Assembly: GCA_031416075.1 (NCBI GenBank)
Contig: JANOSY010000093.1
Span: forward strand, 1 to 51,664
Source of the DNA: Candidatus Tenderia sp.
GTDB taxonomy: Bacteria; Pseudomonadota; Gammaproteobacteria; Tenderiales; Tenderiaceae
DNA: 51,664 nt
Direction: 5' to 3'
Part shown: in pieces, positions 41 through 29,804 of the stretch
Layout of the letters: every line of letters starts with the position of its first letter
Position numbering within the stretch: position 1 is the stretch's first letter
Made by a program: the position numbers and the translations under genes
The notes under the pieces: generated by a model
The model's input: the letters and a program-made list of their open reading frames with translations, nothing else
Databases searched by the model: none
Told to the model about the DNA's origin: nothing

Positions 41-143
41 GGCTAACTCACCAATCAACCGGACCCACTCCAGCGGCGGACCTGCTCACTCCGTCTTTGC
101 TTCGTGCGCCGCTTCCGTGGTCCGGTTATCAGAAACGTTAGCC
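41..143 (+). mobile_element. attC: Integron attC recombination site (103 bp)
   Basis: Inverse core GGCTAAC (41-47) and core GTTAGCC (137-143) are exact complements. Inner arms ATCAACCGGACCCAC / GTGGTCCGGTTAT pair with extra-helical C bases. An upstream reading frame (2-46) ends at the TAA inside the inverse core, as is typical of cassettes. Confidence 0.9.
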
Positions 144-160
144 ACCATAGACCATAGACC

Positions 161-784
161 ATGGGCGAGACCTCAAAAGATGTACTTTCACTGCTGACCC
201 AGCTAATGCCGGGGTTCTTGACTGCATGGGTTGTGTATGGACTTACCACTTATACAAAACCAGTTCAATTTGAGCGAGCTGTCCAAGCATTGATATATAG
301 CTTCATGGTCAATGCACTGGTAGTAGTAATTGAGCCAATGTTATTATTTTCTGGACGGTTTGTACGGTTAGGTATCTGGGATCGTTCAGCAGAGTTAATT
401 ACTTCCGCAGTGGTTGCCATTGCTCTTGGTTTATTGCTATCGTTTTTCATGACGAATGACGCCTTTTTTAGTCGCGCACGACGTCTTCGTATTACGTCGA
501 GAACGCCGTATCCTTCAGAATGGTATGGCGCATTCGCGACTAAATCCCGATATGTTGTATTGCACCTTGAAGGGGCGCGCCGAATATCAGGCTATCCGAT
601 TGAGTGGCCTACAGAGCCGATATCAGGACACTTCCGGCTAACTAACGCTGCGTGGCTAGATGATAAAAACCAGGAAATACCTCTTGATGGAAACGACTCT
701 ATCCTGATCTCTGCGAAGCAAGTAGGAATGGTCGAATTCTTAAAAAATACTGAGGAGTTGAAAGATGCCACAGAAACAACCTAA
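161..784 (+). CDS. DUF6338-like membrane protein (about 3 TM helices plus soluble C-terminal domain)
   Basis: 207-aa ORF with N-terminal LMPGF motif, three hydrophobic segments and a beta-rich C-terminus. Family recognised from memory. Confidence 0.7.
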   Translation: MGETSKDVLSLLTQLMPGFLTAWVVYGLTTYTKPVQFERAVQALIYSFMVNALVVVIEPMLLFSGRFVRLGIWDRSAELITSAVVAIALGLLLSFFMTNDAFFSRARRLRITSRTPYPSEWYGAFATKSRYVVLHLEGARRISGYPIEWPTEPISGHFRLTNAAWLDDKNQEIPLDGNDSILISAKQVGMVEFLKNTEELKDATETT

Positions 785-899
785 CCTCCCACCTCCTCGG
801 ATCCAAAAACCAGACAATGTACGAGGCAATGTTAATCCCCCTACAACCGGGTCACGGCCTCCGCCTCCGCCACCTCCCCCGGCTAAAAAAAGCGGCTAA
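765..899 (+). CDS. Small proline-rich peptide, 44 aa (MPQKQPNLPPPRIQKPDNVRGNVNPPTTGSRPPPPPPPPAKKSG)
   Basis: GAGGAG RBS at 752-757, ATG at 765, stop TAA inside the attC inverse core. Below the ORF-track size cut-off. Confidence 0.7.
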   Translation: MPQKQPNLPPPRIQKPDNVRGNVNPPTTGSRPPPPPPPPAKKSG

Positions 900-948
900 C
901 CCGGCGCTCAAGGGGACGGCTGCGCCGCCCCTTAGCTTTGCGTTGGGC
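894..948 (+). mobile_element. attC: Integron attC recombination site (55 bp)
   Basis: GGCTAAC ... GCTCAAGGGG-ACGGC TGC GCCG-CCCCTTAGC ... GTTGGGC. The L boxes pair with an extra-helical C, giving a canonical short attC. Confidence 0.9.
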
Positions 949-28306: not shown

Positions 28307-28520
28307 GATGTTGCCGCTGCGCTTATTCAAGTTTTCTTTCATAACCTCGCGACATATTAAAGACCGCTTTAATATGGCCAGGATTCATGGAAGAACCCTT
28401 GCCAGCTTGGTGGCGGCGGATCGGCAGCGCCTGCTAGAGGATTACTGAGATGGTGATCCTACATTTGGTCAGCCGCTTGCTGGCCCATTCGGCACTCAGG
28501 CAGTAGGCTGCTGCCCGATC

Positions 28521-28609
28521 TATACATGTCGCAGTCGATCTGTATAGAAAAAACCGGATTTCTATACACGTCGCTGGCAATATGTATAAAAAATAGGACT
28601 TTCTATACA
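28521..28609. repeat. Tandem array of TGTATA...TATACA palindromes with 41-42 bp period (related copy at 29733-29785)
   Basis: TATACA at 28521, 28563 and 28604; TGTATA at 28541 and 28583; TTTCTATACACGTC is shared with the fic upstream region. Confidence 0.75.
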
Positions 28610-28633
28610 AGTCGCATCCTGGGATTCACTGAA

Positions 28634-29689
28634 ATGACGCCACGTAATGCCCCTTTTATTCTGCCCGATGGCTACACCGACTGGTTGAATCAGCTCAAGC
28701 AGGATATCGCCAAAACCCAGCAACGTGCCGCGCTGGCAGTGAATGCCGAACTGGTGCAGCTATACGGGCGGATTGGACAGGAGATTTTGAACCGGCAGGA
28801 GAGACAGGGCTGGGGGGCGAAGGTGATTGATCGTTTGGCGCATGATTTGAAAGATGCGTTTCCGAACATGCGCGGCTGGTCATCCAGCAACCTCAAGTAC
28901 ATGCGTTTTTTCGCCCAGCATTGCCCAAACGGGCTAATTGGTCAGCAGCCTGCTGACCAATTGCCGTGGTTCCATATTGTGACGCTGCTGACCAAGCTGG
29001 ACGATGCTGCCGAACGGGAGTGGTATGCCCTGCAAACCGTGCAGCAGGGGTGGTCACGCATGACACTGGAACTGAATATCAAGAACCGTCTGCAACAGCG
29101 CCAGGGCGTGGCCGTGACCAATTTTGTGGCGCGTTTGCCATCTGCCGATTCGGCCTTGGCACACGAAACACTGAAAGATCCTTACCTGTTCGATTTTCTC
29201 GGCTTGGGCAATGACGCACATGAGCGGGAGATCGAAGATGGCCTGATCCGCCATATCACCCGTTTTCTGCTGGAGTTGGGTGCGGGCTTCGCCTTTGTCG
29301 GGCGGCAGTTCCGGCTGGAGGTGGCTGGCGATGAGTTCTTCATTAATCTGCTCTTCTATCACACGCGCTTGAAGTGCTACGTGGTGGTGGAGCTGAAAGC
29401 CACCGCTTTCAAACCTGAACACGCTGGACAGCTCAACTTTTACCTTGCTGCTGTGGATGCCCAAGTCAAAGCCGATGATGACAAACCGACCATCGGTCTG
29501 TTGCTGTGCAAGCAACAGAACCGGCTGGTAGCGGAATATGCGCTGTCCGGCATCGAAAAACCCATCGGCGTGGCCGAATATCAATTGCTGCGCGATCTGC
29601 CAGAAACGCTGGGGCGTAGCCTGCCCAGCATTGAAGAGATTGAAGCCGAATTGGCAGAAGATTTAAACATGCCGGATACGCTGGAATGA
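28634..29689 (+). CDS. DUF1016/YhcG PD-(D/E)XK nuclease-domain protein (copy 2)
   Basis: Same family motifs as copy 1; start set at ATG 28634 because the longer ORF only reads through the palindrome array. Confidence 0.9.
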   Translation: MTPRNAPFILPDGYTDWLNQLKQDIAKTQQRAALAVNAELVQLYGRIGQEILNRQERQGWGAKVIDRLAHDLKDAFPNMRGWSSSNLKYMRFFAQHCPNGLIGQQPADQLPWFHIVTLLTKLDDAAEREWYALQTVQQGWSRMTLELNIKNRLQQRQGVAVTNFVARLPSADSALAHETLKDPYLFDFLGLGNDAHEREIEDGLIRHITRFLLELGAGFAFVGRQFRLEVAGDEFFINLLFYHTRLKCYVVVELKATAFKPEHAGQLNFYLAAVDAQVKADDDKPTIGLLLCKQQNRLVAEYALSGIEKPIGVAEYQLLRDLPETLGRSLPSIEEIEAELAEDLNMPDTLE

Positions 29690-29711
29690 CCGAAGACCAA
29701 CTCGAACAGGA
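29686..29711 (+). repeat. Direct repeat of the hsdR 5' end (true copy at 30995-31020)
   Basis: ATGACCGAAGACCAACTCGAACAGGA is identical (26 bp) at both positions and flanks fic. Confidence 0.9.
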
Positions 29712-29804
29712 AGCACTACACGTCACTTCCAGATTTTCTATACACGTCCCCCTCGATGTGTATAAAAATACCGATTTTCTATACATAACCTCTACGGTGA
29801 GTGA

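Follow-up and report, generated by a model that had tools for sequence, protein, structure and literature searches.

A mobile integron cassette pairs a DUF6338 membrane protein, predicted to carry an Sm/LSm-fold barrel, with a proline-rich microprotein

Near the start of the 51,664-nucleotide stretch of Candidatus Tenderia sp. DNA analysed here (the window), a gene for a DUF6338 membrane protein is overlapped by a small open reading frame that encodes 44 residues, 16 of which are proline. The original prediction, made from the sequence alone, was that the two constitute a mobile peptide/membrane-partner module of toxin–antitoxin, signal-receptor or phage-defence type. This raises the question of whether the small frame is a gene at all, whether it belongs to its neighbor, and what the pair might do.

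Both frames lie on the forward strand within an integron gene cassette of 805 bp (138–942), the last one ahead of chromosomal genes, with a GC content of 48.6% compared with 52.8% for the genome. The upstream attC (41–143, forward strand; inverse core 41–47, core GTTAGCC 137–143) is part of the preceding cassette, which, together with the array, is interrupted at the contig start; its bottom strand folds with a z-score of −3.7 relative to shuffles, full-length copies of 93–96% identity are found on contigs C73, C24 and C61 and a partial one on C3, and the summed depth across it is very high in metagenome contigs. The downstream attC (894–948, forward strand) has its inverse core GGCTAAC at 894–900 and the crossover GTT at 942–944, and a 96% identical copy is located on contig C70. 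Alone in the integrated form, this site folds no better than shuffles (z −0.9). The 5' core of the cassette (137–143) is the exact complement of the 3' inverse core, and in the excised form all seven core pairs are formed (−18.5 kcal/mol). Metagenome contigs from four runs diverge from the window at 894–898 and 944–949, i.e., at the edges of the site, and one run joins position 140 to 908; this junction, with just 26 nt on one side and possibly chimeric between attC copies, was given no weight. ORF1, the DUF6338 gene, and ORF2, the small frame, together occupy one integron cassette bounded by attC sites with complementary cores. A search of the 95-contig assembly, in which the array is truncated where the contig begins, returned no match to the integron integrase model TIGR02249 above cut-off.

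Other attC-bounded cassettes are scattered at several contig ends of this genome (C73, C24, C61, C3, C70, C58 and C74); the one at C73:191–723 resembles, by eye, a toxin–antitoxin cassette of what we take to be the DUF433/DUF5615 type, and that at C74:174–902 is GIY-YIG nuclease-like. Directly 3' of the cassette in the window is a gene for a Crp/Fnr-family regulator (1096–1884), near whose start the reads reveal a variable 6-bp repeat, and beyond it lie, as assigned by eye, glnK-amtB and then a comM-like gene. Elsewhere in the window, at 28514–29802, two blocks 1176 nt apart carry repeated TTTCTATACA motifs and are 78% alike across 51 nt, and a 32-nt gene-start duplication is located at 29686 and 30995.

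ORF1 (161–784, forward strand, 207 residues) starts 17 nt after the upstream core, and this spacer holds neither a promoter nor a Shine–Dalgarno motif; no promoter was found inside the cassette ahead of ORF1, the sole promoter-like match being internal and at chance level. ORF2 (765–899, forward strand) is read in another frame, overlaps ORF1 by 20 nt, and has its ribosome-binding site, GAGGAG (752–757, forward strand), within ORF1 codons, 7 nt before the ATG. Its product comprises an N-terminal KxPNPPP-type motif, a central GNVNPP, a C-terminal RP8 run (858–881) and the basic tail AKKSG, and the TAA stop (897–899) falls inside the attC inverse core. The ribosome-binding site inside ORF1, the 16 prolines, the mixed codons of the Pro8 run (CCT CCG CCT CCG CCA CCT CCC CCG), the basic tail and the stop in the inverse core are present as originally described. 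Fifty peptides yield the consensus MxQKxPNPPPxRP...RGNVNPPxTxxRPPPPPxPPxKK. The peptide consists of 35% proline and has almost no hydrophobic residues. ORF2 matches no family in Pfam, PADLOC, NCBIfam or PHROG, and in a collection of 15 billion proteins the exact ORF1 is present and the exact ORF2 absent; profile searching returned at least 2 peptide relatives compared with 377 close DUF6338 relatives. The listing of sequencing runs contains no RNA run with the cassette, which is uninformative either way.

The mixed codons had been put forward as a sign of selection at the protein level, for which they are weak evidence on their own; it is the cross-species comparison of substitution rates that settles the matter in favor of the claim. 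In the peptide frame, pN/pS across 21 codons outside the overlap in 19 close sequences (one skipped because of an indel) amounts to 0.185, compared with 2.5 and 3.9 in the other two frames, the value being rough since pS is saturated and the alignment block is anchored on a motif. Third codon positions of the peptide frame vary at 0.54, compared with 0.10 and 0.09 at the other two positions. ORF2 is, as judged from this substitution pattern, a real gene under selection at the level of its protein. A DNA-repeat origin of the proline run was considered and rejected, because the variation is concentrated at third codon positions.

Homologous loci were collected from species genomes, metagenomes, a plasmid and viral contigs. 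After removal of same-place duplicates, of loci without a profile match, and of those without the C-terminus or with less than 200 nt of sequence beyond the gene, 70 loci remained, and 54 after a rough dereplication that left some near-identical pairs. A partner was called as an ORF of 35–70 residues that starts −75 to +70 nt from the DUF6338 stop and passes an RBS score and a proline threshold, all thresholds being chosen after the data had been seen. At ≥20% proline, a partner of the kind anticipated beside homologues is found at 58 of the 70 loci (44/54 dereplicated), compared with 1 of 146 ORFs in the flanks and, among the long ORFs of the host genome, 11 of 2309, the same caller being used throughout; at ≥12% proline the corresponding counts are 66/70 and 51/54 for the loci, and 8/146 and 69/2309 for the controls. 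Each of the three dereplicated loci that are missed has its own peculiarity: L066 has a Gly/Ser-rich partner with 10% proline, inserted DNA interrupts DUF6338 in L020 at about residue 187, before the last strand, and both genes of L093 are frameshifted, possibly through an assembly error. In the reverse direction, among the matches listed for a peptide profile in 400 class-level genomes, eight of eight adjoin DUF6338, six of these eight having helped to build the profile; all fall within the 13 DUF6338-bearing genomes, and none is listed in the other 387. The two genes form a near-obligate unit with a small partner, as type II toxin–antitoxin systems do. The notion of a mobile module is borne out in that the pair is under selection, tightly linked and carried on a cassette; its assignment to toxin–antitoxin, signaling or defence functions is a matter of inference.

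DUF6338 comprises 902 representatives (clusters at 50% identity, E ≤ 0.001) and is patchily distributed, being present in 13 genomes of a class-level set of 400 and in 17 of a phylum-level set of 401; PF19865 scores above cut-off in the control genome of Haloferax volcanii, and the family thus reaches archaea. Matches include none in phage records, one in plasmids and two loci in viral contigs, and an insensitive attC detector flagged few of the homologous DUF6338 loci. In the second, phylum-level sample, L112, L113 and L114 have partners, and L111 has an RBS, the contig breaking off at the start of its partner. L115, a distant DUF6338 with a barrel that by eye is non-acidic, has no peptide downstream and an acidic low-complexity ORF of 50 residues directly upstream. 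A distant clade (L058–L066, L069, L112 and L113) has partners of a different type, 56–65 residues long and rich in Gly, Ser and Pro, in which GYQP-like and PPKGGSGVP-like motifs occur and a PPP run is mostly absent. Arrays also occur, with two peptides in tandem at L055:532–992, and one proline-rich gene on each side of DUF6338 in the viral contig locus L099:3860–4737.

One published study already offers a glimpse of the pairing. According to the accessible text of this study of Pseudomonas stutzeri ATCC 14405 (PMC10433244), predicted operon 9 contains the DUF6338 gene Pstu14405_RS12030 and, behind it, SEP1, SEP5 and SEP2, three basic proline-rich small proteins of 36–47 residues, compared with a single peptide here, and that text gives no fold or mechanism. 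The three peptides were detected by mass spectrometry in uninfected cells (44–114 spectra, 98–100% coverage), so that translation is documented for similar peptides in another species; the DUF6338 protein was undetected, and membrane fractions were not analysed there. Its authors regarded the peptides as confined to P. stutzeri and as possible de novo genes, and raised an antimicrobial possibility. By eye and unscored, SEP5 has the NVNPP motif and all three SEPs end in a proline run followed by K. On this homologous appearance, the SEPs of that report would be members of a conserved two-gene DUF6338 module and not species-specific genes. Both grounds set for rejecting the original proposal, a lack of proline-rich small frames beside homologues and a lack of evidence for translation, are contradicted by the data, the second through these similar peptides of another species.

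ORF1 is a DUF6338 member by profile (PF19865; E = 2e-12, 47.5 bits compared with a cut-off of 26.5, positions 4–204 of the 205 in the Pfam model), and its three hydrophobic helices, at about residues 2–28, 36–64 and 75–98, agree with the DUF6338-like membrane protein originally proposed. An AlphaFold2 model computed from 126 sequences (pLDDT 94.9, pTM 0.82) contains helices at 2–28, 36–64, 75–98, 100–108 (short) and 120–127 plus a five-strand barrel, and the chain ends one helix past the barrel. Foldseek and VIA fold searches assign residues 115–195 of the model (503–745, forward strand) to the Sm/LSm fold, with Z 10.7 and an rmsd of 1.7 Å across 71 residues for the heptameric archaeal Sm protein 1i8f. 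Sm/LSm/SmAP proteins and Hfq (e.g., PDB codes 1i8f and 1th7; Z 10.3–10.7, rmsd 1.7–2.5 Å) share the N-terminal helix and the β2 glycine with the modeled domain, which displays the helix and five-stranded bent barrel that define the Sm fold. The computed structure thereby presents DUF6338 as an Sm/LSm barrel preceded by three membrane helices. Mean Lys+Arg counts in the family (2.2 in loop 1, 1.3 in loop 2 and 4.0 after helix 3) predict, by the positive-inside principle, an N-out topology with the barrel in the cytoplasm. Residues of the barrel that are 91–100% conserved are W121, R140, R141, G144, W149, P150, G156, W165 and E192.

At the sequence level, no LSM or Hfq Pfam match to ORF1 was obtained at E 0.1, and the family profile, run against the sequences of solved structures, gave no significant match. 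In PADLOC 2.0, NCBIfam and PHROG neither ORF1 nor the peptide matches any family, and the PADLOC scan of ORF1 returned just ZorA at E 0.038, across hydrophobic residues. Atlas matches for ORF1 are confined to DUF6338 or unnamed clusters, and for the peptide consist of one lead at 0.76 that carries no weight. A 197-residue Siphoviridae protein (BFVD A0A8S5PTE5) matches the whole model with TM 0.55 and 13% identity, and is a possible remote full-length relative.

The top structural matches of the barrel are RNA-binding Sm/LSm proteins, which suggests an Hfq-like ring that is tethered to the membrane, binds RNA and is modulated by the peptide. R140 and R141 are 91–95% conserved and align, in a weak in-register hhalign comparison with Hfq of the host genome, with positions that we take to belong to the distal RNA face. 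However, compared with Sm/LSm/Hfq proteins, DUF6338 is fused behind three membrane helices, shares 11–18% identity, and lacks both their sequence profile and the uridine pocket as judged from the residues that presumably line it. Canonical uridine binding is unlikely, because P150 aligns with the Asp of the Hfq β2–β3 loop and almost every homologue has a domain with a net negative charge. Together with the lack of any YKH-like or RG motif apparent by eye in ORF1, and of the Pfam matches mentioned above, this makes an RNA-binding ring a quite unlikely function.

MscS has three membrane helices and assumes an N-out, C-in orientation, and DUF6338 resembles it in having three helices followed by an Sm-like domain, with the same orientation predicted. 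In MscS, membrane helices lead into an Sm-like domain, and the protein forms a heptameric channel (PMC3710371; bioRxiv 10.1101/140376), the accessible portions of the two sources differing on whether the Sm-like domain makes ring contacts. DUF6338 differs from MscS in the absence of a C-terminal α/β cage, in its extra Sm helix, and in being mobile, patchily distributed and tied to an obligate peptide partner. The profile probability compared with the MscS of the host genome is 0.1%, i.e., there is no similarity of the PF00924 type, and MscS is not among the top 50 matches listed in PDB fold searches, three in all, the list being filled by Sm-domain matches. A stripe of small residues on helix 3 (S82/A86/G90/S94; 84, 99, 99 and 88% G/A/S in the family) could hint at a pore, or alternatively reflect packing within the subunit.

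Several features hint indirectly at contact between the two proteins. The median net charge is −6 for the Sm domain and +6 for the peptide, and across 54 pairs the two charges are inversely correlated (Spearman −0.45). Independent contrasts give an r of −0.24 (p 0.04 in a one-sided permutation test; opposite sign in 31 of 44 contrasts), compared with −0.07 for the N-terminal half as control; with unit branch lengths the values are −0.44 and −0.24, respectively. The charge comparison was chosen post hoc, after the data had been seen. In the natural fusions P0123 and P0127, the latter present on nine contigs, a whole peptide follows DUF6338; an alignment-free fold of P0127 has a mean pLDDT of 47 and is uninformative. 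The charge co-variation and the fusions hint at a protein partner for the peptide. Furthermore, of 42 starts of each gene, 36 for the peptide and 6 for DUF6338 have an SD-like motif ahead of them, the former number being inflated since peptide starts were picked partly by their RBS. This asymmetry and the peptide spectra in the available P. stutzeri data fit a peptide made in excess over DUF6338.

These observations also bear on the possibility that the small ORF acts mainly in cis. A Pro8 run needs EF-P for its translation and efp is present in the host genome, and the predicted EF-P dependence thus follows for this allele. As a property of the family it does not hold, because PPP is absent in 7 of the 51 partner peptides; EF-P sensing cannot be general, and could at most concern most alleles. 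The Pro8 run, the PPP present in 44 of 51 partners, and a stop codon within the attC core are compatible with an EF-P-sensing regulator based on polyproline stalling, or with translation that melts the attC hairpin for the benefit of downstream cassettes. However, the small ORF is located downstream of the gene it accompanies, and the motifs and position of the peptide are kept in homologous loci, many of which have no recognizable attC. Full-length products accumulate in P. stutzeri as far as the accessible data go (PMC10433244). With the partner suggested by charge co-variation and fusions added to this, a main role in cis is highly improbable.

Alternatively, the peptide could be the active product, as a ribosome-binding antimicrobial, a decoy or a signal, with DUF6338 as its export channel, receptor or immunity protein. 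Its basic Pro/Arg-rich makeup is like that of proline-rich antimicrobial peptides, an idea that the P. stutzeri text also raises (PMC10433244), multiple diverged copies and a strong RBS would suit such a product, and a ring could pass an unfolded chain. We nevertheless consider this unlikely. The peptide has no signal peptide, leader or hydrophobic segment of the kind that marks secreted peptides and bacteriocins, none of the 149 flanking ORFs recurs as a third gene, and no conserved peptidase or transporter is nearby. The P. stutzeri peptides are nearly full length in the cell proteome (98–100% coverage in the same partial source, PMC10433244), and such high constitutive levels would ill suit a product that poisons ribosomes. 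In the fused forms the peptide would be tethered, and among the matches listed for the 400 genomes there is no peptide gene without DUF6338. The evidence speaks more for an intracellular peptide, with the cytoplasmic Sm-fold domain as its target, than for a signal that is secreted.

How the peptide would act on this domain can be envisaged in two ways. In one, DUF6338 is a non-lethal membrane scaffold or sensor whose Sm domain would hold the peptide as a "tail in trans" with a regulatory role, akin to an SH3–polyproline adaptor, and thereby recruit or block a host or phage protein or RNA, for example in blocking DNA injection or in stress tuning. Sm and SH3 domains are both small β-barrels, and SH3 domains bind basic polyproline through acidic loops and aromatics, as described in the part of the source available (bioRxiv 10.1101/140376); DUF6338 likewise combines a small barrel, acidic loops and a conserved Trp/Tyr/Pro cluster with a basic proline-rich chain. 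It differs in being bacterial, membrane-anchored and of Sm type by fold search, the binding in this case being putative. The fusions carry the peptide as a C-terminal tail, insertions in highly expressed housekeeping operons are tolerated, and the peptides are abundant in normal growth in the accessible P. stutzeri data (PMC10433244). However, an adaptor function does not alone explain why a small partner is almost always present where DUF6338 is intact, it leaves unexplained the arrays of two to three diverged peptides (L055, L099, and three in the published P. stutzeri operon), and there is no conserved third gene as target. Overall, we regard the adaptor as possible but somewhat doubtful.

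In the other, which we tentatively prefer as a serious possibility that falls short of probable, the pair is a toxin–antitoxin-like phage defence in which an Sm-ring membrane effector is restrained by an excess of unstructured polyproline peptide. The Sm barrel, on the cytoplasmic side, would assemble into a six- or seven-membered ring like those of Sm proteins and Hfq, and gather the membrane helices into a potential pore with the order of elements seen in MscS. The basic, unstructured peptide, present in excess, would bind the acidic Trp/Pro-rich barrel and keep the ring shut or unassembled. Release would follow either from a phage-induced arrest of host expression or from a phage protein that eliminates or displaces the peptide, and the freed membrane protein would then depolarize the cell in an abortive infection. 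The two-way linkage, the peptide excess, the charge hints, the fusions, the pore stripe and the genomic context were counted in favor of this reading, and L115, which has no downstream peptide, together with the absence of MscS from the listed fold matches and the lack of profile similarity to it, against it. Furthermore, some Sm-fold domains are not rings, which counts against the ring and pore step. A specific variant, doubtful in our estimate, is a minimal MscS-like Sm ring gated by a separate polyproline microprotein. In this bacterial module for polyproline recognition, ongoing synthesis of the peptide, sensitive to EF-P in most alleles, would report translation health, its loss would open a suicide pore, and arrays of diverged peptides would widen the sensing.

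The surroundings of the pair lend modest support to a defence function. Among 149 of 201 listed flanking ORF entries, scanned after leaving out duplicates, the plasmid locus that carries annotation and the ORFs lying farthest away, 23 match PADLOC profiles, compared with 8 of 117 control ORFs (Fisher p 0.034, about 2.3-fold); the control, 20 arbitrary regions in 10 DUF6338-bearing genomes, is imperfect, both sets contain housekeeping look-alikes, and the loci are non-independent. Clear defence neighbors include CBASS TRIP13–Cap17 (L035), Septu (L026), BREX-type PglW (L059), type I/IV restriction (L095), HEC-07 (L014), PDC-S52 (L006 and L020) and SoFic (L022). The pair is found in an integron cassette, in prophages and in islands, with L024, L052, L099 and L100 being prophage-like. 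The absence of a PADLOC, NCBIfam or PHROG family for either protein was counted against defence, as were the several loci in housekeeping operons together with an enrichment of only about 2.3-fold.

At L035:715–3787, 190 nt separate the pair from a CBASS-type TRIP13 and a Cap17-like effector, which precede it on the same strand, and in a Planctomycetota plasmid (L098:2472–6717, NZ_CP019084.1) it is directly 3' of an ATPase and S8 peptidase pair, which we take to be of IetAS-type architecture. It is also found co-oriented in or beside housekeeping operons, i.e., grpE-dnaK (L058, L063 and L064), infB-rbfA (L092) and the region from pyk to fba (L091), after argG (L088) and guaA (L061), and beside dusA (L040 and L044). 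For L063 and L064, dnaK was deduced from an antisense NAD-GH Pfam match, which we take to be an artefact. These housekeeping and hotspot insertions mostly have no adjoining recombinase, and around seven operon insertions no convincing flanking direct repeats or duplicated gene starts were found.

Type II toxin–antitoxin systems in phage defence are a general class that includes fused forms such as CapRel. The pair resembles them in its small, coupled and overlapping genes, its unstructured partner apparently in excess, its mobility and its occasional fusion, and differs from them in having no known toxin or antitoxin fold and in its arrays of diverged partners; the cassette contains no autoregulated promoter and no DNA-binding antitoxin domain. 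Most addiction cassettes have their own promoter and do not place the toxin first, and a cassette without a promoter of its own, in which the putative toxin, a membrane protein, is encoded first, was counted against a toxin–antitoxin reading. The pair is a DUF6338 member by profile and an Sm protein by fold; it is not a profile match to MscS, to the anti-phage systems catalogued in PADLOC 2.0 or to a known toxin–antitoxin family. According to the available portion of a preprint, at least one third of the integron cassettes without known function that were tested conferred phage resistance (bioRxiv 10.1101/2024.07.02.601719), which raises the prior for defence here. Among these BRiCs, BrcWGS21/Deva is, like the present pair, a cassette with a small membrane protein predicted to oligomerize. 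In contrast to the pair, no proline-rich partner or Sm domain is described for BRiCs in that portion (10.1101/2024.07.02.601719), the comparison being by description and not by sequence.

In the literature searched, subscription papers and bioRxiv supplements (tables of defence candidates) lying outside its coverage, no membrane Sm protein with a proline-rich partner was found described, no mention of PF19865 was found in the text, and DUF6338 was found in a single paper. To the pairing already in print in the P. stutzeri report, as far as that is accessible (PMC10433244), the present analysis adds the Sm fold, the two-way linkage and the charge co-variation. DUF6338 emerges as a widespread family whose partner gene is almost always missed by annotation, and gains a predicted fold, a membrane-anchored Sm barrel, that was not found described in the literature searched; the published possible de novo peptides are recast, within the limits of the accessible text, as members of a conserved two-gene module. 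If the adaptor reading is true, the pair would be a bacterial counterpart of SH3–polyproline recognition; if the preferred toxin–antitoxin-like reading is true, it would represent a new effector and a new class of antidote in anti-phage immunity.
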